Below are positions 2,467 to 42,418 of a stretch of 64,000 nucleotides of DNA, one piece after another. The position numbers and the translations under genes are program-made. A model generated the notes under the pieces. The model made no database searches. It was not told the origin of the DNA and worked only from the letters and a program-made list of their open reading frames with translations. The first letter of the stretch is position 1. Each line of letters begins with the position of its first letter. Location: assembly GCA_964404855.1 (NCBI GenBank), contig CAYOLO010000002.1:67494-131493 (forward strand), read 5' to 3'. The DNA is from an uncultured Gammaproteobacteria bacterium. Lineage in GTDB: Bacteria; Patescibacteriota; Microgenomatia; CAYQLK01.

Positions 2467-3696
2467 CTACTCAATTGTTTTAAATCCTGTATATTTGTGC
2501 AGAACATCTGGAATTATTATTGAGCCAGATTCGGTTTGAAAATTTTCCAAAATTGCCGCAATAATTCTTCCGAAGGCGAAGGCTGTTCCGTTGACTGTAT
2601 GGACTAGTTCTTTCTCATTATTGTCGTTAATATATTTAATATTTAGCCGTCTGGATTGAAAATCAGTCGTATTGGATGTCGAATGAGTCTCTCTATATTT
2701 TGATTGTGACGGGAACCAAACCTCAATGTCATATTTTTTGGCGGCAGGGAGACCTAGATCACCTGAAGCAATATTAAGTATTTGATATGGCAGCTTAAGA
2801 CCTTCGACCAATGATTTTTCTAGCTCCAAAATTAAATTATGTTCAGCTTGCGACTGTTTGGGGGTACAAAAAACAAACATTTCTAATTTATTAAATTGAT
2901 GGACACGAATTATGCCTTTTGTGTCTTTACCATAGCTCCCCGACTCGCGACGAAATGAAGGTGAATAACCCATATACCTTAAAGGTAGCTGGTTTACTGT
3001 AAGTATTTCATCCCTATGCATTGGACCAATTGATTGTTCAGCTGTACCTACCAAATACAAATCATCTCTTTCTAGATAATAAGTTTCTTCATTACCACCA
3101 TGTTCTAGATATCCCATTCCTTTCATTGAAGAGGAACTAATTAACACTGGAGGTAAAACAAATACAAAATTTTTCTCCGAAATAAGCTCCCTTGCATAAT
3201 TAAGTAACGCTAGTTCCAACTCTGCACCTTTACCTATTAGATAATAAAATCTTGAACCGCTGACTTTGGCCGCTGATTCAATATCGATAATGTCGAGTGA
3301 TCTACCTAACTCTTCGTGACTTTTGGGAGTAAAATTAAATTTATAGGGTTCGAAATTTTTTCCAACTACCAAACTCTTATCTTCACCACCAATTGGCACT
3401 TCATCAAAAGCTGGATTTGGTATTTTTGAAATTAAATCTTGAAATTTATTTTCTACAACCTTTAATGTTTCTTCAAGTTTTTTTAAATCTACCTTTATTT
3501 TTTTACCTTCCTCTGATGGTTTTTTTGACTTGGAGATAATTTTTCTCTTTTGATTAAATTCTTCTATTGATTTGATAAGTGCATTTCTTTCCTGTTCAAG
3601 TTCAATTACATTTTTAACCAAAATATCAACACCCTTTTCAAGAATCTTTTTTTGAAACCAATCTGGATCGGATTTTAATTTTTTGATATCAATCAT
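2467..3696 (-). CDS. serS: Seryl-tRNA synthetase (class II)
   Basis: N-terminal coiled-coil arm; class II core motifs FRRESGSYGKDTKGIIRVHQFNKLEMF and TSNTTDFQSRRLNIKY; 409 aa. Confidence 0.9.
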   Translation of the reverse strand: MIDIKKLKSDPDWFQKKILEKGVDILVKNVIELEQERNALIKSIEEFNQKRKIISKSKKPSEEGKKIKVDLKKLEETLKVVENKFQDLISKIPNPAFDEVPIGGEDKSLVVGKNFEPYKFNFTPKSHEELGRSLDIIDIESAAKVSGSRFYYLIGKGAELELALLNYARELISEKNFVFVLPPVLISSSSMKGMGYLEHGGNEETYYLERDDLYLVGTAEQSIGPMHRDEILTVNQLPLRYMGYSPSFRRESGSYGKDTKGIIRVHQFNKLEMFVFCTPKQSQAEHNLILELEKSLVEGLKLPYQILNIASGDLGLPAAKKYDIEVWFPSQSKYRETHSTSNTTDFQSRRLNIKYINDNNEKELVHTVNGTAFAFGRIIAAILENFQTESGSIIIPDVLHKYTGFKTIE

Positions 3697-4295
3697 TTTT
3701 GATCTTTAATTTCCCCAATACCTTTAATTTTACCCGAAGTGATTAATGTTATTGCTTTTTGATGCCAAGGAAAACGAGTGATTTTTAAAATATCATGGGT
3801 TTTTTTCTCTAGCTCATGCTTAGCAGCTGGTACGCCTTGAATTTGGGCGATGGCGTCAATATGATCTGCTGCTTTGGCAAACCTGGCCTCTAAACTTTTT
3901 CTTTCTGAATACTCCTTGTATAAACTAAGAATCTCTTCTTTGTTAACTAAATCCTCAACGAGTATTTCCATTCCTTTATCCTCTATATCGCGAAATTTTC
4001 CTTTTTCTAAATATTTTACAAACGACCCAACATCTCCAACAATTGTTTCTGCTAAATCATGAAACAATGCCATTTTAAGAACTTTGTTTTCGTCAACTCT
4101 AGGTTTTTTGTTTTCCTTATTGTGAAGAATGGCTAGCTCGTAAGCAAGAATTGCTGTCGCAAAGGAGTGAGCAGCGACAGAATCTGCCTCATTTCTTTTG
4201 AACCCTAATGTGACAAATCCTTGTCTGGGTAGTTCCTTCGTCCACTGAATGCGTAAAAAAAATTTGATTAGACTTGTTAAATTATTCGTTTTCAT
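3693..4295 (-). CDS. HD-domain phosphohydrolase (YfbR-like 5'-deoxynucleotidase family)
   Basis: H..FATAIL...FHDLAETIVGD motif of HD superfamily; 200 aa; 4-nt overlap with serS. Confidence 0.65.
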   Translation of the reverse strand: MKTNNLTSLIKFFLRIQWTKELPRQGFVTLGFKRNEADSVAAHSFATAILAYELAILHNKENKKPRVDENKVLKMALFHDLAETIVGDVGSFVKYLEKGKFRDIEDKGMEILVEDLVNKEEILSLYKEYSERKSLEARFAKAADHIDAIAQIQGVPAAKHELEKKTHDILKITRFPWHQKAITLITSGKIKGIGEIKDQK

Positions 4296-5745
4296 TTTTC
4301 CCTTCTTTCATAAGCGGGAAAATTACGGTCTCCCGAATAGGCAAGCCCATAAGAACTGAAAATAGCCTTTCAGATACTCCAAACCCAGCCGCTGGTGGCA
4401 TTCCATATTCCATTGCCTCAATATATTCCTCATCAATCATTTGGGCCTCATTATCGCCGTTTTCTCTGAGTTTCATTTGATTTTCAAATCTTTCCCTTTG
4501 ATCAATTGGATCATTAAGCTCTCCAAATCCTTTACCTAACTCTGAACCAAAAGCTAATATTTGCATACGCTGAACTGTTTTGGGATTATCAAGGTTCTTT
4601 TTGGCCAAAGGTTCTATTTCGATTGGAGGGTTAATTAAAAAAGCAGGTTGCAGTGAGACTTCTGGGAGTATACGAATTTTCTTTTTAAAAATTAGATCAA
4701 TAATTCTTCCTCGGCCCGCTGATTTTTCGTAAGTGATTTTGTTTGATTTGGCATATCTAAATAACTCTTCATCACTGGCTGTGAGAAGATTGATGTCGGT
4801 GTGTTTCCTAAACAAATCTAGATATTCAAGTTTTGGCCAATTACCTGACCAGTCAACAACTTGCCCCTCTCTTTCAAACTTAAGCGTACCGAAGGTTTCT
4901 TGAATCACAAACTGATACATTTTTTGAGTAAAATCCATTAGTTTATTGAACTCTCCATAAGCCCAATAAAATTCCATTTGGGTGTAATCTTGAAGGTGCT
5001 CAGAATCTATTCCCTCATTCCTGAAAATCCTCCCTATCTCAAATACTTTTTCGTATCCCGCTACCAGCATTTTTTTAAGCGGCAGTTCTAATGAAATTCT
5101 CAGGTAAAAATCTCTATCTAAAGCATTGTGGTGAGTTACAAATGGCTCAGCTTCTGCGCCTCCAGGAATATTTTCCAAAATCGGCATCTCGACCTCGAGA
5201 AAATCTTCGTTAACTAAAAACTGTCGCATTGATGACCAGAACTTATTTTTTTTAATAAAAATATCTTTTACCTCTGGATTAATTAATATATCCAGATAAC
5301 GTTTTCTCAATCTTGTTTCAATATTGGCCAATCCATAGTACTCACTCGGAATCGGTAGTAAAGATTTAGCGAGAAGTTTGTAAGTTTTTATATCAACCGT
5401 GGTTTGACCAGCGTTTGTTACAAATACTTTGCCTGTAACTTCTAGGAAGTCTCCAATATCCAAAAGTGAAATTTTTTTAAAAACTGCTTTATCCAGTTCA
5501 TCGGATTTAAAAAGAATCTGAATTTGACCGCTAAAATCTACCAAATCGCCAAAGATAATTTTGCCATGGGATCTAAGGGAAAAAAGTCTGCCAACAATCG
5601 TTACTTCTTTTTCCAGAGACTCTAGAGCAGAACTAATTGTGTGGGACCTGTTTGAACTTGAAGGATAGACTTCAATATTTTGATCTTGAAGTTTTTTTAA
5701 TTTGTCGAGCCTGATTTTTCTTAGTTCTGATAATGGACTTGGCAT
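4282..5745 (-). CDS. lysS: Lysyl-tRNA synthetase, class II
   Basis: N-terminal OB-fold region; motif 2 FRNEGIDSEHLQDYTQMEFYWAY; motif 3 GFGVSERLFSVLMG; 487 aa. Confidence 0.9.
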   Translation of the reverse strand: MPSPLSELRKIRLDKLKKLQDQNIEVYPSSSNRSHTISSALESLEKEVTIVGRLFSLRSHGKIIFGDLVDFSGQIQILFKSDELDKAVFKKISLLDIGDFLEVTGKVFVTNAGQTTVDIKTYKLLAKSLLPIPSEYYGLANIETRLRKRYLDILINPEVKDIFIKKNKFWSSMRQFLVNEDFLEVEMPILENIPGGAEAEPFVTHHNALDRDFYLRISLELPLKKMLVAGYEKVFEIGRIFRNEGIDSEHLQDYTQMEFYWAYGEFNKLMDFTQKMYQFVIQETFGTLKFEREGQVVDWSGNWPKLEYLDLFRKHTDINLLTASDEELFRYAKSNKITYEKSAGRGRIIDLIFKKKIRILPEVSLQPAFLINPPIEIEPLAKKNLDNPKTVQRMQILAFGSELGKGFGELNDPIDQRERFENQMKLRENGDNEAQMIDEEYIEAMEYGMPPAAGFGVSERLFSVLMGLPIRETVIFPLMKEGKNENE

Positions 5746-5826
5746 CAGTTTATGAACACTAACTTGTATTTAGGAGAGTATATTCCAAGACAATCTTTCA
5801 ATCAAGGCGACTTACTATAACAAAAC

Positions 5827-6333
5827 TTATCTGGTCTCAATCGAAATTATTTTATATACAGGTTTTGAAGCAATCGGAGGACTAACTTCATCGCCAACTT
5901 TTGCACCCATTAGCGACTTTCCAACCGGAGAATCTTCTGAAAGTCTATTAGTTAAAGGGTCTGCCTCAGGTGTAGAAACAATCGTAAAGATTTGTTCTGA
6001 GTTGCCAAGTTTTACGGTCACGATTGAGCCAACTTTGACCTTATGATCGTTATCAATGTGTTCCGGAAGTACTTTCGCGTGTTTTAATGTTGCCTCGATA
6101 TCTGTAATTTTAGCTTCGAGAGCAGATAGCTCGTCTTGAGCTGCATCGTATTCAGAATTTTCAGACAAGTCTCCCATTTCACGAGCAGCCTGAATTCTTG
6201 AAGCAACTCTTACTCTCTCTGGACCAGTTAATTTTTTGTGTTCTTTTTGAAGGTTTTCCAAAAAGTCTTTTGTTAGCAGGATTTCTTTTGCTTTAGTCAT
6301 AATAAAAAAACCACTAGCTGTCGATTTCATCAA
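5827..6333 (-). CDS. greA: Transcription elongation factor GreA (true start probably the MTKAKE Met near 6300)
   Basis: KAKEILLTKDFLENLQKEHKKL...RIQAAREMGDLSENSEYDAAQDELSALEAKI coiled-coil plus C-terminal FKBP-like domain. Confidence 0.85.
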   Translation of the reverse strand: MMKSTASGFFIMTKAKEILLTKDFLENLQKEHKKLTGPERVRVASRIQAAREMGDLSENSEYDAAQDELSALEAKITDIEATLKHAKVLPEHIDNDHKVKVGSIVTVKLGNSEQIFTIVSTPEADPLTNRLSEDSPVGKSLMGAKVGDEVSPPIASKPVYKIISIETR

Positions 6334-33517: not shown

Positions 33518-34231
33518 TTAACCTATAGCAATTGAATATATAGCTTTTTCGTTTGTTCTGTCAATTCGAAGCAGTTTGTTGAGCTTGTCTTCATAAAAAC
33601 CGCCAATTGGACAAGTTCGAACTTTATATTTTTCCGCGATTAATAATATATTTTGAGCCAAATGGCCCGCTTCTATAAAAATATATCTTAATGATTTGTC
33701 TCCGTATTTAATTGCACTTCTTCCTGGAACAGCGGTGATAACCAAAAAAACTGAAGAGTTTGCGACCCAGCTATCTACGAGCGACTGTTTTAAATCTGAT
33801 TTAAAATCTTTTAGTTGGAGTATTTCTAGCGTGTTGTTTTCAATCGAGTAATGATACAAGCCTTTTTTTAAACCTTTAACATTGTTTATAAAAATATAAA
33901 TTTCTAATGGATACCTTGCACCACCAGATGGATACGCACGATAGCTGCGACCGTCGACAGTTGCAGCAAAATTTGCAAAATAAATAATTTTTTTAAGCCT
34001 AATAGCTGATATGAGACGATTGATATTCCTTTGGCTTCTTCTACTGGCAATAACTTTTTCTAGTTCTGATGAGGGCTTGAGTGCTGGGAGTTTAAGATTG
34101 GGAAACCTTGGATAGTTTTTGTAATGAATTGTTTTCCAGGCAATCGGCCACTTATCGTACGGAATTGGTTCTGGAGCAGTGTCCGACTGTGTTCCAGTTT
34201 CGATAAAAAATTTGTTTATATAATCTTTCAT
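33518..34231 (-). CDS. SagB-type FMN-dependent dehydrogenase (TOMM/LAP azoline oxidase, nitroreductase superfamily)
   Basis: RAYPSGGARYPLEIY signature; 237 aa; 4-nt overlap with YcaO gene. Confidence 0.8.
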   Translation of the reverse strand: MKDYINKFFIETGTQSDTAPEPIPYDKWPIAWKTIHYKNYPRFPNLKLPALKPSSELEKVIASRRSQRNINRLISAIRLKKIIYFANFAATVDGRSYRAYPSGGARYPLEIYIFINNVKGLKKGLYHYSIENNTLEILQLKDFKSDLKQSLVDSWVANSSVFLVITAVPGRSAIKYGDKSLRYIFIEAGHLAQNILLIAEKYKVRTCPIGGFYEDKLNKLLRIDRTNEKAIYSIAIG

Positions 34232-35520
34232 AGGAATGGTTGTAGAAATGGATCTAGGTTTTTGATTTGTCGTTTGGCGATTTTTTCAATGCGGCTGACT
34301 TCAAGATATTTATATTCCTCTTCTAAATATAATGGCTGGGCCTGGGGAATAATGATTTTACAAGCAAAAAATCCTAATTTTTTAATTTCTGGGTCATCAA
34401 ATTCTTTTAAATAAACATCAAACCCGATTTTTTTAAGCTGAGAAGTTAGTTTCTTTAATGTGGTTTTTGGATAACTTGACTTAAGCGAAAGTCTGATTGT
34501 TTTTTTATTTTTTAACCAAAAATTAATGTGTTTAAGAACGAACGGTTGACTCCAAATTAGTCCTCGGTCTTTCAGCTCGTATGTCTGATTAATGTTTTTT
34601 AGCAATGATTGGATATATTTTTCATCAGATTTTGCTAGCTCGTCACGCATCCAACCCCGAGTATGAAATGATTCCTCAAGACTGCCTTGAACAGCACGAT
34701 TTAAATCTGTGTGGCATTTCAGACCAAAAGTGACAACAGGTTTATTTTTTGTCTGATCAAGGAGAATTGTCAAAATTACTGGAATATCATAGTCATTGTC
34801 TAATTTAATTATTATTGGTTTGAGATTGTAAAAATTGAATTCATCCAAAATATCAGCAATAATACCCGATGGATTTGTTAGCTTAAGAATTGTACCTGGC
34901 AATTTAGCAAGATAAGAGGATATAAATGTGTCTCTTTCTAAGACTTCAAATATTGCTCGAATAATCGTTGAGTTTCTATCAAGACCTGCGGATGCGCCGG
35001 TTGATATTGGTGTGCGGATAATTTTTTCTTTTTTTCCAAATGGACAATATACTGTTTGAGCAGGAATATATATCGTTTTGTTTGTAGTCAAATCTGTCGC
35101 TTTGGTCCAGTAAAGCGAATCTTGAGGCTGTGCAATCTTTTTTCGAAAGATTGGGTTGGATAATTGTTCAGGTGAGAATTTTAGAAATTTTATTAACTCG
35201 ATTGAGGGGGATAGATTTTTTTGGGAAGCAAATATTAAATCTTTTAAATCTTTTTTTGATGGAATCAAAGCATATCTTTCTACCATTTCGATGTAACCTT
35301 TTATAAAAGCAAGTCTCTCATCCCACGCAGATCCGCTTGCATTGGTACTGAATTTTTTTGACGAGTTTTTACTGTTCAATATGAACGTATACAATTTAGG
35401 TTCATCGTTATAAAAATAACTTCGATGTACCGTCGATATAAAATTTGTTTTTTTGTGGGCAGACACACATTTCTGATATAGCAATTCTAGATTGCTTTCT
35501 ATCGATTTTTTGTTTGACAT
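34228..35520 (-). CDS. YcaO-domain cyclodehydratase (SagD/D-protein-like), standalone (no fused E1-like domain)
   Basis: N-terminal ATP-site motif NASGSAWDERLAFIKGYIEMVERYA and central STGASAGLDRNSTIIRAIFEVLERD (S.G.A.G...A..E..ERD). Confidence 0.85.
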   Translation of the reverse strand: MSNKKSIESNLELLYQKCVSAHKKTNFISTVHRSYFYNDEPKLYTFILNSKNSSKKFSTNASGSAWDERLAFIKGYIEMVERYALIPSKKDLKDLIFASQKNLSPSIELIKFLKFSPEQLSNPIFRKKIAQPQDSLYWTKATDLTTNKTIYIPAQTVYCPFGKKEKIIRTPISTGASAGLDRNSTIIRAIFEVLERDTFISSYLAKLPGTILKLTNPSGIIADILDEFNFYNLKPIIIKLDNDYDIPVILTILLDQTKNKPVVTFGLKCHTDLNRAVQGSLEESFHTRGWMRDELAKSDEKYIQSLLKNINQTYELKDRGLIWSQPFVLKHINFWLKNKKTIRLSLKSSYPKTTLKKLTSQLKKIGFDVYLKEFDDPEIKKLGFFACKIIIPQAQPLYLEEEYKYLEVSRIEKIAKRQIKNLDPFLQPFL

Positions 35521-35540
35521 AAATGCTTTTCTTTTTATTT

Positions 35541-35554
35541 GTGTGAGCTCACAC
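35541..35554. promoter_or_regulatory. Perfect 14-bp palindrome GTGTGAGCTCACAC between precursor gene and ycaO
   Basis: Seen directly; 13 nt downstream of precursor A1 stop on minus strand; no U-tract after it in mRNA sense. Confidence 0.35.
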
Positions 35555-35584
35555 TAGCTTTCTTAACCTAAATTAAGATCACTA

Positions 35585-35728
35585 TTATCTACCGGAATTT
35601 GAGCCTGTGTGTCCACATGAGCCCTGCGCAGAAGCACTACTGGTAGCATTTGCTATTTCTTCCTTTGATAATTCAACCTCTGAAATAACTTCGTCGTATT
35701 CCTTGGCGTTAATGTTAGTATTGTTCAC
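35585..35728 (-). CDS. Candidate RiPP precursor peptide A1 (47 aa; absent from ORF track)
   Basis: Minus-strand GTG at plus 35726-35728 preceded by AAAGGAGGTGA SD; in-frame TGA inside the SD blocks upstream extension; product MNNTNINAKEYDEVISEVELSKEEIANATSSASAQGSCGHTGSNSGR, with a Ser/Cys/Thr/Gly-rich core. Confidence 0.55.
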   Translation of the reverse strand: MNNTNINAKEYDEVISEVELSKEEIANATSSASAQGSCGHTGSNSGR

Positions 35729-35760
35729 TTTTTTCTTTCACCTCCTTTCAAATATTGATT

Positions 35761-36012
35761 TTATCTACAGTTTCCATGACAACCACTATGGGAACAAGCT
35801 GAACAATTTGAAGAGTTTGAGCTTGCGCTGGTTGAGAAATTTGCATAGCTGTCTTTAACAATTATCTTCAGTTCCAACAAACTAAACGGCTCGTACTCTT
35901 TAAAATTTTTAATTCTTTCTGGGTAATTTTGATCAAAAAAAACCCGAGCAATTGCTCGGGAACTCGCTGCTTTTTTATTATTTAACAAACACAACCGAAG
36001 TTTGTTTTTCAT
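35761..36012 (-). CDS. Candidate RiPP precursor peptide A2 (paralog of A1; N-terminal extent uncertain)
   Basis: C-terminus ...KEYEPFSLLELKIIVKDSYANFSTSASSNSSNCSACSHSGCHGNCR aligns with A1 (KEY...EL.K....AN. then TSAS...SC.H.G...R). ATG at 36010-36012 is 6 nt from a promoter -10 (leaderless). An intrinsic terminator lies inside the first 75 nt. Confidence 0.4.
   Translation of the reverse strand: MKNKLRLCLLNNKKAASSRAIARVFFDQNYPERIKNFKEYEPFSLLELKIIVKDSYANFSTSASSNSSNCSACSHSGCHGNCR
35935..35960 (-). terminator. Intrinsic terminator/attenuator hairpin inside the 5' part of the A2 ORF
   Basis: Perfect CCCGAGCAA/TTGCTCGGG stem (plus 35943-35960) followed on the minus-strand RNA by U8 (plus A8 at 35935-35942). 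Could also terminate the upstream pilin/repeat-protein operon. Confidence 0.55.
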
Positions 36013-36024
36013 TATTGTAGTGGG

Positions 36025-36052
36025 ATTGTAACAAATTTGTGATAAAAGTCAA
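36025..36052 (-). promoter_or_regulatory. Sigma70-like promoter TTGACT-16-TACAAT upstream of the RiPP-like operon
   Basis: Minus-strand -35 TTGACT (plus 36047-36052), 16-nt spacer, -10 TACAAT (plus 36025-36030). Confidence 0.4.
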
Positions 36053-36079
36053 GATTATTTATTTCTTCGATACTTAATT

Positions 36080-38230
36080 TTAAATACAAGTTGCTGAATC
36101 GAAACACAAGCCATCCTCTGGTGCGAGGTCTTTGAGGGCGCCATTGAAATTGAGGAACGCAGAATTAAGCGCATTGGGGCGAATATAGTTAGAACTACAA
36201 CTTGAGCTATCCTGAAGCACCGCCGTTCCTCCTTGCGTCGTTACCATGTAATCATTTGGTACTCCATCAGAATCTGGGTCGTATAAGCAGATGTATTTTT
36301 GAGTAATTTGAGTACCTGTCGCGTTAAAAAGTGTGATTCCGGGCGCTCGAACTATTTGCTTAGTTGGACCCCAAACTAGAACACTGCCTGGGTTAACAGT
36401 CATGTCAGCATCCATTTGAATACTACCAGTATCTGACCCAACGAGCTTAACCTGTGTTGTTGAAACCGTTAGTCCATTAGTAGGAATGTTACAAGATGAG
36501 CCGATAGTGACATCTCCTGAAACTGGAAATGTACAACCTGACGCGGGGGTTACTGTAGTAAATGTGTCGTCTGTGGTGTAAGCAGTGCCTGCAGAGTTAG
36601 TGGCATAAACTCGGAAATGATATAAAGTTTCTGGGCTGAGATTCGGGATAATTACACTAAAAACACCTGTTGTACCCGAAGTGCCTAGACAATTACCGCC
36701 AATACTCGGATTGGCACTTAAACCAACGCATACACCTCGACCAGTAATAGTATTACCGTTATCAGAAGTTACATTTGCCCCAAGGTTTGCGTTAATCGTG
36801 GTAATAGCATTTTTGGTTGAAGACGAAATAGAAGGCGGACTATTTTTAGTAACCGTAAAGCTTGTATCGGCACAATTATTAGCACCATCACATACTCTTA
36901 AATATCTAGTGTTGGATCCAGTTGTTAATGCCGCATCAACAATGGAGCCTGTAGTTACAGACTGGGCACTAGTAGCTGAGGTCCCAGTGAGGTAGGTGCC
37001 AGTACCGTTTGGACCAGTGTAAACATAACCAAGTAATTCACTAGCATTTGTGCTGGCAGCATCATTTGGAGTGAATGTAACAGTGTAAGTGTTATCAGTT
37101 GAGACTGCGGTAGGGGTGTGGGAAATTGAGGTGGTACTAGTTGGATTAACCGTATCTCTATATAACCAAGTGAACCAGTCACTTGACCAAACGACACCAT
37201 CAGAAACACGTAAATAAACAACATTAGCCCCTTCAACTATACCTGTCTGTGTATAAGCAAAAGTGCCAAAATTGTTTGTTTGACCACTGGTCGTTGTGCC
37301 GTTAGTGATAAGCGTGCCTCCTCCACCGGGAGCGGTACGTAGCTGCCAAGATAGTGCGTTAGCGCCTGTTTGTTCTGCATCATTGGCGCGCAATGAAAAA
37401 GACCAGGTTGTATTTGCGCCTGTTCTAAATCTGCTGTTTTGATAAGTTACTGACGGACCTATAGAAACTGTTGGAGCCGTGTTGGGGTTAAGTGTAGTAA
37501 AAGTGTCGTCTGTGGTATAAACCGTACCCGCAGAACTGGTTGCATAGGCACGATAGTGATAAAGCGTGTTACTGTTCAATCCGCTGACTGCAATCGTAAA
37601 TATCCCTGTTGTTCCACTAGTACTTGTACATCCTGTAGTTGGATTAGCTGAAAGACCAACACATACACCTCTACCTGACCATGTTCCATTTCCGGCTGAA
37701 GTAACATTTCCACCAAGTGTTGCACCAGTGGTTGTGATTGATGTTTTGGTTGGTGAGGTAATAGTTGGAGGTGTTTGACAGTTAAGGGCGGTGAATGTGG
37801 ATGATGCTTTATTCATCGCTGGCCACCCTAAATTGCGATCCTGAAGAAGGATTGTGTAGCTTACGCCTGCTGTAAAACCTGACCCTCCTTTGTTCCAAGT
37901 GTTGGAATATGTACCAGATAAAAATTGACTGAAGTCGTACATACTCGAATATTTGTTATAGGGATTATCTGTGCTTCCAGCTGAACCATTTGGACCTTCG
38001 ACTGTATAGTTGACTGAAAGCGATGATATGTTTCCAACGCAGATTGGAGTTGCGGAATTAATCGTATAAGCTGCATAAACCGATTTGAGTTTTCCAACTG
38101 TGATTGTGCCGATAATTAACAACACAAAAGTCAATAATACTTTAGACGATGTTCGTGAGTATTGATTGCAAAAAATTAGAGTCAATAGTTTCATATTGTT
38201 TTTGAGTAAATTGAGTTTGAAATTTTTCAT
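36080..38230 (-). CDS. Large secreted/cell-surface protein with tandem ~95-aa beta-rich (FN3/Ig-like) repeat modules
   Basis: Signal/TM N-terminus; internal repeats ...GRGVCVGLSANPTTGCTSTSGTTGIFTIAVSGLNSNTLYHYRAYATSSAGTVYTTDDTFTTL and ...GRGVCVGLSANPSIGGNCLGTSGTTGVFSVIIPNLSPETLYHFRVYATNSAGTAYTTDDTFTTV; 5 nt after pilin gene. Confidence 0.6.
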   Translation of the reverse strand: MKNFKLNLLKNNMKLLTLIFCNQYSRTSSKVLLTFVLLIIGTITVGKLKSVYAAYTINSATPICVGNISSLSVNYTVEGPNGSAGSTDNPYNKYSSMYDFSQFLSGTYSNTWNKGGSGFTAGVSYTILLQDRNLGWPAMNKASSTFTALNCQTPPTITSPTKTSITTTGATLGGNVTSAGNGTWSGRGVCVGLSANPTTGCTSTSGTTGIFTIAVSGLNSNTLYHYRAYATSSAGTVYTTDDTFTTLNPNTAPTVSIGPSVTYQNSRFRTGANTTWSFSLRANDAEQTGANALSWQLRTAPGGGGTLITNGTTTSGQTNNFGTFAYTQTGIVEGANVVYLRVSDGVVWSSDWFTWLYRDTVNPTSTTSISHTPTAVSTDNTYTVTFTPNDAASTNASELLGYVYTGPNGTGTYLTGTSATSAQSVTTGSIVDAALTTGSNTRYLRVCDGANNCADTSFTVTKNSPPSISSSTKNAITTINANLGANVTSDNGNTITGRGVCVGLSANPSIGGNCLGTSGTTGVFSVIIPNLSPETLYHFRVYATNSAGTAYTTDDTFTTVTPASGCTFPVSGDVTIGSSCNIPTNGLTVSTTQVKLVGSDTGSIQMDADMTVNPGSVLVWGPTKQIVRAPGITLFNATGTQITQKYICLYDPDSDGVPNDYMVTTQGGTAVLQDSSSCSSNYIRPNALNSAFLNFNGALKDLAPEDGLCFDSATCI

Positions 38231-38235
38231 ATAAG

Positions 38236-39102
38236 TTATCGAATAATAATTTCTGATGTAATTTCTTGCTCTTCTGAATCCATTGCGGATAGGTGCACAG
38301 TATAAGTTGTATCGTGAGTATCAGTGTGTGGAATACTAACTGCCCATGTTTCCCTATATATTTGATTGCTTATTGTAGAAGATGTTTGAGTAAGGTTAAA
38401 AGTTTCTGTAGTCGAGTTATCTAACTCAATATAAGCTGATACTTGACCGATTGGGTGTTCGGACCAAACTTTGGCTGTTACTAATTGCGTCTGACCAACC
38501 CCTGCATCAAGAGGATCAAAATCAACTTGAATTATTTTTGGGTATGTTGTCGATGATCCAAAATATGAAACCTTCCCTTGAATTAATTCGGTAGGAGACG
38601 GTGTGGGGGTTGGGCTTGGCGTTGGGGTTGGTATAAGATAAATTGACGCCAAGGAACTATTTGCACTCGCCAGTCCAGCATTATAAACACCTAGTGGTCC
38701 ACATTTGCCATTGCACGAAAACTCGTTAGGGACTAGATTCTCAAACTTGGCATATAGTTGATATTCGGTTCCGAATTGGGAGACGTATGCATATTTTTGA
38801 TTTTTGAGTGGATCAGACGGAAGCTGCATATATGTACTCCAATTGCTTCCCCAAGGAGCAGCAGATATTTCATAGTTATCATTTGATAGTGGATAAATAT
38901 TATTTGCCACACGATATGCCTCAATTGCTGTCTGAACAGCTTTGAGATCAGATGCTCTCTGTAGATCTCTTGTTCTACGTAGCTGAATAACAGGATTGAT
39001 GGCAATTATCACTAAAGAAATTAGTACACCTAAAATTCCGATGAATACGATAATTTCTATGGTTGTAAATCCAAAATTAAGCGTACTGCGCTTACTACAC
39101 AT
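38236..39102 (-). CDS. Type IV pilin-like protein (class III signal peptide)
   Basis: KRSTLNFG|FTTIEIIVFIGILGVL with Gly-1, Phe+1, Glu+5; PTPTPSPTPTPSPT linker. Confidence 0.75.
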   Translation of the reverse strand: MCSKRSTLNFGFTTIEIIVFIGILGVLISLVIIAINPVIQLRRTRDLQRASDLKAVQTAIEAYRVANNIYPLSNDNYEISAAPWGSNWSTYMQLPSDPLKNQKYAYVSQFGTEYQLYAKFENLVPNEFSCNGKCGPLGVYNAGLASANSSLASIYLIPTPTPSPTPTPSPTELIQGKVSYFGSSTTYPKIIQVDFDPLDAGVGQTQLVTAKVWSEHPIGQVSAYIELDNSTTETFNLTQTSSTISNQIYRETWAVSIPHTDTHDTTYTVHLSAMDSEEQEITSEIIIR

Positions 39103-41411: not shown

Positions 41412-41424
41412 AAATCTATTTTAG

Positions 41425-41460
41425 CAAGAAAAAGCCCCCGTCCATTTCCGTGGACGGGGG
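41425..41460 (-). terminator. Intrinsic terminator (10-bp GC stem) downstream of the GC-rich membrane-protein ORF
   Basis: CCCCCGTCCA(6 nt)TGGACGGGGG at 41435-41460; minus-strand RNA continues with UUUUUCUU. Confidence 0.6.
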
Positions 41461-41533
41461 CAAAAAGCGGAAGGCGGGAGCTTGTTTAGCTCCCAACCTA
41501 CTTGATCTTGAGCTTTTGGCAGTACTTGACTGC

Positions 41534-41968
41534 CTAGGCTCTGAGGAAGGTGGGGATGAGGCCGAGGCGGCCGGCGAGCTTGCTGAGGCCGACATACACG
41601 GCGGTGATGATGAGCATCGGGAACACCATGATGGCGGAGAACACGATGAAGATGATGGGTTCGTACCACTGCATCGGAGGCGAGCTGTTGACCGAGTCGT
41701 AGCCGACGACGTAGCCGCCCATGATCAACATGCTTCCGAAGAAGCAGAGGATGACTTGGGTCAGGACGGGTCGGCGCGATTCGGACGCGAACGCGACTGC
41801 CATGATTGGGACGAGGACGTACCCGAGCCAAAGCGAGGCGATACCCGCGGCCGTGTTGTTGTCCGGCGCCTGCCCGGCGATCGTGCCTGCCCAGAACGCG
41901 AAGAACGCGGTCATGGCGAGGTAGAAGAGCTTGAGCTGACGCGACGGATGACTGAGGGTTTCGAGCAA
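41534..41968 (-). CDS. Small 4-TM membrane protein encoded in a ~600-bp high-GC insert
   Basis: Hydrophobic segments (FYLAMTAFFAFWAGTIAG, LWLGYVLVPIMAVAFA, ILCFFGSMLIMGGYVVG, IIFIVFSAIMVFPMLIITAVYVG); the other long overlapping frames here are compositional artefacts. Confidence 0.45.
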   Translation of the reverse strand: MLETLSHPSRQLKLFYLAMTAFFAFWAGTIAGQAPDNNTAAGIASLWLGYVLVPIMAVAFASESRRPVLTQVILCFFGSMLIMGGYVVGYDSVNSSPPMQWYEPIIFIVFSAIMVFPMLIITAVYVGLSKLAGRLGLIPTFLRA

Positions 41969-42020
41969 GTCTGTGGACCTTCCTTTTTTAATGATCTAAC
42001 CCCCATTATACAATACTATA

Positions 42021-42048
42021 GGACATAAGTCAAATTTGACTTATGTCC
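42021..42048. promoter_or_regulatory. 28-bp perfect palindrome GGACATAAGTCAAATTTGACTTATGTCC at the edge of the high-GC insert
   Basis: Seen directly; about 55 nt upstream of the minus-strand membrane ORF start. Confidence 0.4.
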
Positions 42049-42347: not shown

Positions 42348-42418
42348 TGCGGGATCGTCTAATGGTAGGACACGCCCCTCTGGAGGGTGGTATTGGGGTT
42401 CGAATCCCTGTCCCGCAG
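42348..42418 (+). tRNA. tRNA-Gln (anticodon CTG)
   Basis: U1-A72 acceptor TGCGGGA/TCCCGCA, anticodon stem CGCCC/GGGTG with loop CTCTGGA, T-arm GGGGTTCGAATCCCTG, discriminator G; no encoded CCA. Confidence 0.8.

Follow-up and report, generated by a model that had tools for sequence, protein, structure and literature searches.

Two candidate azol(in)e-peptide precursor genes in a cassette with ycaO, a sagB-type gene and an ABC-F gene from a putative CPR bacterium

INTRODUCTION

Bacteria of the candidate phyla radiation (CPR) are tiny episymbionts with few biosynthetic genes and, because they have so few, each one that is retained likely matters for their lifestyle. No natural product from CPR/Patescibacteria turned up in literature searches. 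The nearest described systems are the 110 clusters for linear peptides that contain azol(in)es (LAPs) predicted, by bioinformatics only, in 93 CPR genomes (Sharrar et al. 2020, mBio, PMC7298704), in which a YcaO protein is encoded next to a nitroreductase-family dehydrogenase and a small Ser/Cys-rich precursor, with a peptidase in many cases and no C protein listed. Within a 64-kb stretch of contig CAYOLO010000002.1 (the window), a minus-strand operon of this kind runs from a promoter through P2, P1, ycaO and a sagB-type dehydrogenase gene to a gene for an ABC-F ATPase (Table 1). P1 is a 47-codon open reading frame (ORF) that an initial annotation of the window had singled out as its best precursor-peptide candidate, and P2 is a second small gene upstream of it. 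From sequence comparison, P1 and P2 are best read as LAP precursors in a CPR/Patescibacteria-type bacterium, and P1 is likely to be modified by the adjacent YcaO and SagB-type enzymes.

The locus resembles the clusters of Sharrar et al. in its CPR host, which is deduced from homologue record names (Microgenomates, Levybacteria, Dojkabacteria, Roizmanbacteria), in its YcaO encoded next to a nitroreductase-family dehydrogenase, and in its small Ser/Cys-rich precursors. Because CPR LAP clusters had already been predicted (PMC7298704), P1 represents no new class. In the window lineage, by contrast, there are two precursor genes in tandem, a peptidase gene is missing and an ABC-F gene shares the operon; ABC, transporter and resistance genes are unmentioned in that study, which describes neither the Q-x-S-C-x-H-T-G core family nor the leader motif [AFSV][KRMI]E[FY]. 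Four aspects appear to be new: the precursors form a defined family, conserved over deep divergence, in which the core is invariant and the leader bears a motif of four residues; an ABC-F gene takes the place of an exporter as an integral part of the cassette; there is explicit evidence of a YcaO without a partner domain; and the window lineage has paralogous precursors arranged in tandem after a terminator-like element that is itself embedded.

Two characterized LAPs, klebsazolicin and phazolicin, act by blocking the exit tunnel of the ribosome, with immunity conferred by export through KlpE/PhzE (PMC6783444). As is predicted here, their linear Ser/Cys/Thr-rich cores are converted to azoles by a YcaO and a dehydrogenase (PMC6783444), and they are proposed as functional analogues of the present product (translation inhibitors), no significant sequence similarity being established. 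Both need an E1-like C protein and use an exporter for immunity, whereas this locus has neither and carries an ABC-F gene instead. Cleavage of the phazolicin leader occurs at Ala|Ala and involves no peptidase from its cluster (PMC6783444), and P1 contains the comparable stretch ..ANA|TSS... The x-x-(S/T)-P motif that starts the klebsazolicin core and directs its amidine (PMC6783444) is missing from P1, and the P1 and P2 cores are free of Pro altogether. The microcin B17 enzymes McbBCD likewise comprise a D protein (YcaO) and a B-type dehydrogenase, McbC, with a catalytic Lys-Tyr pair, and McbC and McbD are homologues or fold matches of the enzymes described here; the E1-like scaffold McbB with its RiPP recognition element (RRE; RiPP, a peptide that is ribosomally synthesized and then modified after translation) is essential there and absent here, and the target of microcin B17 is gyrase. 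A YcaO domain alone engages the peptide substrate in the bottromycin enzymes BotC/BotCD and in MJ1094, but these install a single thiazoline, macroamidine or thioamide and are not paired with a SagB on a multi-site Ser/Cys core. 

Against the general definition of LAPs, or thiazole/oxazole-modified microcins (TOMMs), the locus has Cys/Ser/Thr-rich precursors beside ycaO, a YcaO with ATP/Mg motifs and a SagB with Lys-Tyr, and it lacks the leader-recognition partner (an E1-like C protein, or an Ocin-ThiF-like F protein with an RRE). The TfuA gene that accompanies ycaO in YcaO-TfuA thioamidated RiPP clusters was not found among the Pfam and NCBIfam hits of the cluster genes; the constant neighbour of ycaO is the SagB dehydrogenase instead. 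Soluble two-domain ABC-F proteins are encoded inside biosynthetic clusters in the cases of OleB, CarA, SrmB, TlrC and LmrC (PMC8546547), and in such antibiotic clusters they serve self-protection or signalling (OleB, LmrC; PMC8546547). LmrC-type genes are under ribosome-mediated attenuation (PMC8546547), and a comparable terminator-like hairpin heads the present operon. The OleB/LmrC-type clusters differ in making macrolides or lincosamides, not RiPPs, and here the attenuator-like element lies inside a precursor ORF. No LAP or other RiPP cluster with an ABC-F was found reported in literature searches.

Table 1. Coordinates of the cassette features in the window
Feature	Position	Strand	Remarks
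P1, 47-codon precursor gene	35585..35728	-	leader with NAKEY; core ATSSASAQGSCGHTGSNSGR
Shine-Dalgarno sequence of P1, AAAGGAGGTGA	35738..35748	-	includes in-frame TGA; kept in relatives
P2, 83-codon putative paralogous precursor gene	35761..36012	-	ends ...NFKEYEPFSLLELKIIVKDSYANFSTSASSNSSNCSACSHSGCHGNCR; core SSNSSNCSACSHSGCHGNCR
Sigma-70-like promoter, TTGACT-16 nt-TACAAT	36025..36052	-	TG extended -10; consensus scan
RNA hairpin 1, AACAAAC / 9-nt loop / GTTTGTT	35984..36006	-	within P2 codons 3-10
Terminator-like hairpin, CCCGAGC-AATT-GCTCGGG then T8	35935..35960	-	P2 codons 18-26; candidate attenuator
Perfect palindrome GTGTGAGCTCACAC	35541..35554		between P1 and ycaO; RNA hairpin or operator
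ycaO, 430-aa stand-alone YcaO (D protein)	34228..35520	-	predicted ATP-dependent cyclodehydratase; PF02624 E=4.8e-39
sagB-type FMN (flavin mononucleotide) dehydrogenase (B protein), 237 aa	33518..34231	-	4-nt overlap with ycaO
ABC-F ATPase, 582 aa	31768..33516	-	two ABC domains, no membrane domain; candidate target-protection immunity factor

RESULTS

P1 is a conserved gene under selection

The P1 ORF was confirmed where the initial annotation had placed it, with 47 codons and a TAA stop, a GTG start at 35726-35728 of the minus strand and the product VNNTNINAKEYDEVISEVELSKEEIANATSSASAQGSCGHTGSNSGR. The claimed strong Shine-Dalgarno (SD) sequence, AAAGGAGGTGA, is present and ends 9 nt before the GTG; its element AGGAGGTGA occurs once in the window against an expectation of 0.31. 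An in-frame TGA inside the SD (35740-35738) had been said to set the 5' end, and it does, the ORF containing no other ATG, GTG or TTG. The distance of 64 nt from the P1 stop to the ycaO ATG (35520) on the same strand also agreed. The description of P1 as unannotated held for the ORF track of the window but not everywhere, the exact 47-aa peptide being already predicted by several gene callers in Logan, ENA and JGI assemblies. A genetic code with UGA read as Gly, which would abolish the 5' boundary of P1, was rejected: translation under table 11 gives full-length products for all cluster genes, and P2 of one close relative (L007) ends in TGA where the window has TAA.

Size alone gives P1 no significance, since 163 ORFs of at least 30 aa occur in 21 kb of this 37% G+C sequence; it is conservation that lifts P1 above chance. 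The exact YcaO protein of the window was found on ten short contigs from other samples, and four close relatives (L007, L008, L065 and L067), with YcaO proteins 74-86% identical to that of the window, were compared with their flanks. In all four the ORF, its GTG and its SD are retained. The ratio of non-synonymous to synonymous proportions (pN/pS, Nei-Gojobori counts) over the whole ORF is 0.10-0.19, and the last 20 codons (ATSSASAQGSCGHTGSNSGR) show no non-synonymous difference against 8-11 synonymous ones (pS 0.5-0.7), which indicates strong purifying selection on the peptide. P1 is thus a real gene under selection.

The initial annotation would have been refuted had no conserved or syntenic small ORF stood beside ycaO homologues; such ORFs were found in the relatives. 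The expected pattern of a conserved leader and a hypervariable core was reversed, the core being invariant while the leader varies. A core that stays invariant across such deep divergence suggests that the molecular target is conserved as well. The proposal that P1 is a precursor peptide for the adjacent YcaO gained support from the SagD-type YcaO and SagB neighbours, from the related small genes and from purifying selection. P1 also stood as a good precursor candidate, but not as the sole one, P2 being equally conserved 32 nt upstream.

P1 belongs to a precursor family with a short leader motif

A YcaO profile scan with one genome per species yielded 57 loci from CPR bacteria, DPANN and other archaea, about 50 of which have a SagB gene directly after ycaO. 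In six loci (L064, L009-L011, L069 and L071), with YcaO proteins 37-47% identical to that of the window, a single gene of 47-49 aa precedes ycaO. Its products, for example MRVKKSQVNKNAKEFITNKMIVGSNCNQGSCTHTGSNSSACYTGKTK and MRKKLSYAMEYSASLSGLVGSNCNQGSCSHTGSNSSACYGVKLSKKTKK, follow the pattern M..[AV][KMI]E[YF]..L[VI]G[SA]NC[NDS]Q[GTSN]SC[ST]HTG[ST]NSSACYG[VI]KL.KK.K and are here called canonical. When they were aligned with P1, residues E10, Q35, S37, C38, H40, T41, G42, N44 and S45 were invariant, and the best tblastn match of a canonical precursor in the window was P1 (E=7.6e-4). From these two results P1 is taken as a shortened family member with the conserved core Q-x-S-C-x-H-T-G-[ST]-N-S.

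The leaders have in common the short motif [AFSV][KRMI]E[FY], seen as NAKEY in P1, NFKEY in P2, and DAKEF, DAREF, AMEY or VMEF elsewhere. Of 28 bacterial loci, 13 have a Cys/Ser/Thr-rich small ORF with this motif upstream of ycaO, against a background of about 0.01 per 50 aa; L017 and L019 carry DAKEF too and stand outside that count, having been missed by the composition filter. This frequency over a low background makes the motif a plausible recognition element of the YcaO clade.

The precursor family is rare or mostly uncalled. About nine clusters at 90% identity were found in 5.8 billion proteins, an exhaustive hidden Markov model search of 1.84 billion representatives returned the family's own two members and one spurious repeat protein, and a metagenome scan with the precursor alignment gave three loci, all close relatives of P1.

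Other small genes were seen beside YcaO-SagB pairs in the same survey. Five CPR loci (L012, L013, L014, L017 and L019) combine a D/N-A-K/R-E-F/Y leader motif with Cys/Pro-rich cores such as CKPPPCGAPPPPCGVPPPCRKPPPC and have no ABC-F; L013 has two tandem precursors. Nine DPANN loci (L026, L029, L030, L032, L033, L036, L038, L047 and L059) have their own family of ~74-aa precursors, M..DQSDYIESAAYL...PCKAPCKSCGGGCYGCKGSKG.... A ~211-aa HExxH protein (HEIIHN) is encoded in nine archaeal loci, seven of them in that DPANN set. A second HExxH family (~274 aa, HELAHC) is encoded in 13 archaeal loci other than these, and both families probably act as leader peptidases.

The YcaO and SagB-type proteins retain ATP/Mg and Lys-Tyr motifs

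A profile built from 37 YcaO homologues matched the cyanobactin heterocyclases MusD, TruD and LynD, which form azolines, best (E=1e-35 to 4e-30), followed by the stand-alone YcaO of M. jannaschii. The ATP/Mg motif columns ExxER, STG and ExxERD (E78, E81, R82, S173-T174-G175, E192 and E195-R196-D197) are invariant among the 37 homologues. The C-terminus FPHPF of the family aligns with the Pro-rich NPTPMPF of TruD, and the window protein itself ends in DPFLQPFL. An AlphaFold2 model of the YcaO (pLDDT, a per-residue confidence score, 91.2; pTM, a predicted template modelling score, 0.93) consists of one YcaO domain over its whole length. Its best structural match, which extends from end to end, was the stand-alone MjYcaO (MJ1094), with a template modelling (TM) score of 0.80 over the target, and the LynD YcaO domain reached 0.76 over the query. 

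The SagB-type protein scored 131.5 bits against TIGR03605, above the cutoff of 78.4, and its PDB matches were CyaGox, BmdC and McbC. The catalytic Lys-Tyr pair (K175-Y176) and the motif RxYPSxGxRxPxExY are kept in 57 of 57 homologues. These matches and motifs suggest azoline formation followed by oxidation by a partner-independent YcaO and a SagB.

In two Bathyarchaeota loci (L022 and L028, ~4842-5935) the ORF directly upstream of YcaO ends ...VPNCPTCGKRKE. With its ...CPTCG... ending, this ORF is possibly E1/ThiF-like, in which case a partner would have been retained by some relatives of this YcaO clade.

P2 overlaps conserved RNA elements at the head of the operon

P2 shares the strand of P1 and ycaO and lies 32 nt upstream of the former and 240 nt upstream of the latter. 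In the relatives its length is always 83 codons, its core is near-invariant, SSNSS[N/S]C[S/A]ACSHSGCHGNCR, and its pN/pS is 0.32-0.41. P1 and P2 are reciprocal best tblastn matches in the window (E=0.007 and 0.025) and have the pattern N-x-KEY-[DE]...EL...AN in common; a BLASTP comparison of the two was marginal (E=0.045). Reciprocal best hits, the shared motif and the shared position together make it best to read them as probable paralogues. P2 also matched NF033400 (thiazolylpeptide-type bacteriocin) weakly, at 18.2 bits against a cutoff of 30.

The promoter, both hexamers of which are conserved in L007, L008 and L065, ends 12 nt ahead of the P2 ATG, and P2 has no SD, which implies a nearly leaderless mRNA. 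Two hairpins fall within the first codons of P2. In four lineages the stem of hairpin 1 is invariant or has G-U pairs, the stem and T-run of the terminator-like hairpin are invariant, and both loops are variable. Over P2 codons 1-27 third positions are as conserved as first and second ones (0.64-0.77), and over codons 28-83 the normal coding pattern is seen (0.15-0.22), third positions being the least conserved. A start downstream of the terminator-like hairpin was considered and rejected: no ATG, GTG or TTG is conserved there, yet codons 28-60 show coding substitutions. The start of P2 is therefore placed at the ATG at 36012, and its 5' end must double as an RNA element.

RNAalifold recovered the two hairpins in the P2 5' region with zero compensatory substitutions, so that support for the structures consists of invariant stems and variable loops only. 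No alternative antiterminator pairing was found by eye in this region. Against Rfam, the whole window at the gathering threshold gave just two tRNAs, both elsewhere, and a search of 35400-36200 at an E-value threshold gave sub-threshold generic hairpins in the 5' region (Leu_leader, E=0.1); the element belongs to no known RNA family in Rfam. It may act as a translation-coupled attenuator, a hypothesis under which upstream read-through and untranslated transcripts would be stopped and translated leaderless ones passed.

The cassette is a self-contained unit that has changed in the window lineage

The canonical cassette consists of A (the precursor gene), YcaO, SagB, Peptidase_C39_2 and ABC-F. 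Its genes overlap and its flanks differ between loci, which marks it as a self-contained five-gene unit. A gene for a C39-like peptidase lies between sagB and ABC-F at 2958-3683 in L064, 3539-4255 in L069, 6480-7265 in L071 and ~7980-8713 in L009-L011. These stand-alone, cytoplasmic proteins retain ECGPAC...GH...VDP, and the canonical precursors carry L[VI]G[SA]|NC, which we infer from sequence to be a double-glycine-type cleavage site.

Directly after the precursor gene the sister cassettes have a G+C-rich hairpin and T-run (AAGGAGGGG...CCCCTCCTTTT) that overlaps the ycaO SD. A hairpin after a RiPP precursor gene is the usual leaky terminator giving excess precursor mRNA, and by analogy the sister-cassette hairpin would act in the same way. 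The window lineage has lost the peptidase, gained P2 and bears the palindrome GTGTGAGCTCACAC at the position of AAGGAGGGG..CCCCTCCTTTT. The palindrome is 14 nt long, is invariant in L007 and L008 and folds as a 5-bp hairpin.

The ABC-F gene is linked to one type of precursor core

ABC-F proteins act on the ribosome. The gene in the window starts 1 nt after sagB, and its product contains PF00005 twice and the linker PF12848, the two-domain arrangement without transmembrane segments of antibiotic-resistance ABC-Fs. It scored 403.8 bits against NF000355 (ribosomal protection-like ABC-F; cutoff 380), and all cassette ABC-Fs tested pass this model. It could not be placed in a recognised resistance subfamily, all models for the Msr, Vga, Lsa, Sal, OptrA and producer types scoring far below their cutoffs.

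An ABC-F gene occupies the same position in L007-L011, L064, L065, L067-L071, L075 and L076. Over all loci examined it lies directly downstream only where the precursor core is of the C-x-H-T-G type or the related G-S-C-x-H type, and it stays there across differing flanks. A search with the ABC-F returned relatives that are 46-51% identical to it. The three nearest ones sampled, leaving identical sequences aside, were examined, and two of them are in A-YcaO-SagB-ABC-F operons (L075 and L076). The L075 precursor (3658-3897), ...SNCS(GGGS)8QCSNSGNPCGGSCNRCSK, has eight tandem GGGS repeats between its leader and its Cys-rich core, and the L076 precursor reads ...SCANSGDRCTGSCNHSSAQPHN. More distant relatives of the ABC-F bear the JGI name 'macrolide transport system ATP-binding/permease protein'.

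In the third, a Candidatus Microgenomates locus (L077, 2104-7563), the ABC-F gene lies beside an APH-like gene (a faint hit) and an EryCIII-like glycosyltransferase gene (a weak hit), which from these sequence matches is possibly a resistance-gene neighbourhood.

DISCUSSION

Proposed route and the evidence against it

In the route set out here the heterocycles, the mode of leader recognition, the cleavage site, the ribosome target and the immunity role of the ABC-F are all drawn from comparison with known systems. The very strong SD of P1 would give high translation of the peptide. The stand-alone YcaO would bind the precursor directly, probably through [AFSV][KRMI]E[FY], and with ATP the Cys, Ser and Thr residues of the core ...QGSCGHTGSNSGR would be cyclodehydrated to azolines, which the SagB-type flavoprotein would then convert to azoles. 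The leader would be removed by the dedicated C39-like peptidase in the sister cassettes; for the window lineage a housekeeping protease is presumed because the peptidase gene is missing. The product would most likely bind the ribosome, a target proposed because the ABC-F gene shares the operon and has been inherited together with the precursor and YcaO of this clade, and the ABC-F would most likely shield the ribosomes of the producer. By analogy with the known translation inhibitors and cluster-borne ABC-Fs, the chances that the product inhibits translation and that target protection by the ABC-F provides immunity are judged to be roughly even. A more ambitious proposal joins a minimal YcaO that needs no partner and recognises a leader motif of four residues, ABC-F immunity replacing export, and a translation-coupled terminator in a leaderless P2 that feeds the translation status of the producer back on production and immunity. 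Such a combination would give a new ribosome-targeting azole peptide and the first RiPP of this design; it is offered tentatively, with the balance somewhat against it.

Several observations weigh against this route. No E1-like, ThiF-like or RRE partner was found among or beside the operon genes or fused in the YcaO model, the SagB protein is too short for an RRE, and clustering of the neighbours of the CPR loci revealed no recurring partner family, so this is not a textbook TOMM synthetase; most characterized azoline-forming YcaOs require a partner (PMC7136475). The YcaO scored 178.5 bits against TIGR03604 (SagD), below the trusted cutoff of 219. P1 has a single Cys, the window contains no exporter, and tblastn with the sister-cassette peptidases found no C39 homologue in its 64 kb. 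On the side of the ABC-F, comparison with solved structures showed ABCF1, YheS, Sal-type, VmlR, EttA and PoxtA to score alike, leaving resistance and housekeeping types inseparable, and L077 (GCA_016196685.1) has a 49%-identical ABC-F with no YcaO nearby. When 48 YcaOs were placed in a neighbour-joining tree, those linked to an ABC-F fell into two clades only, which may reflect one or two ancestral events; the linkage is thus old and maintained and does not represent many independent events.

Alternative explanations

P1 and P2 could be genuine azole-peptide precursors whose product is not directed at the ribosome (it might serve in signalling, bind a metal or mediate interaction with a host), the ABC-F being a housekeeping translation factor that happens to share the operon. 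By similarity the ABC-F cannot clearly be called a resistance type; this would fit, as would the occurrence of a homologue without YcaO, the confinement of the linkage to two YcaO clades, the lack of an exporter, uncommon among antibiotic clusters, and the other CPR and DPANN YcaO-SagB loci with their Cys/Pro-rich cores and no ABC-F. Against it, the ABC-F gene stays directly downstream, often in overlapping frames, while the flanks differ, and it correlates with one core type; the protein also passes NF000355, and its distant relatives are named as macrolide transport proteins. We consider this explanation rather unlikely. A different objection concerns the number of precursors: P1 could be a truncated, decaying duplicate of the canonical precursor, lacking as it does the canonical C-terminal SACYGVKL.KK.K and having one Cys, or P2, with its odd 5' end and embedded hairpins, could be a lineage-specific by-product. 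Both cores are near-invariant under purifying selection in four lineages, and the SD of P1 is the strongest in the window, which makes a single functional precursor improbable.

P1 could also be no substrate at all but a regulatory upstream or chance ORF, YcaO and SagB modifying another protein, for example a ribosomal one. The YcaO stands alone, and in structure it is matched best by the M. jannaschii enzyme, which has no partner and thioamidates a protein; E. coli-type YcaOs act on ribosomal proteins (PMC13063428). Set against this are a core conserved at the amino-acid level among loci whose YcaO identity falls as low as 37%, small genes rich in Cys, Ser and Thr that accompany this YcaO clade and have a leader motif in common, a SagB-type azoline dehydrogenase with Lys-Tyr that is always adjacent, sister cassettes in which a C39-type peptidase occurs together with a G[SA]|N site, and cluster genes among which no TfuA was seen. 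A role of P1 other than as substrate is accordingly given very little probability, and modification of P1 by the adjacent YcaO and SagB-type enzymes remains the preferred explanation.

Implications

The cassette is compact, with two precursors and three proteins in ~4.3 kb, and is tractable for heterologous expression. Should a short linear motif be all that the YcaO needs, with no partner, peptide engineering would gain a useful minimal enzyme for installing azoles. Should the ABC-F be an immunity factor, the target (the ribosome, at the peptidyl-transferase centre or exit tunnel) would have been predicted before isolation of the compound, and ABC-F-guided genome mining would extend from polyketides to RiPPs.

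Flanking genes and base composition

Upstream of the operon (36080-39102, minus strand) lie genes for a 716-aa secreted protein with Fn3-like repeats and a 288-aa GspG/pilin-like pseudopilin, the synteny of which is limited to close relatives. The G+C content of the cluster is 36.4% and that of the window 37.4%, and base composition thus gives no sign of recent transfer. Further upstream, at 41421-42028, a local rise in G+C (0.45 against 0.37) coincides with long overlapping ORFs on both strands, and a tRNA gene lies nearby at 42348-42418.

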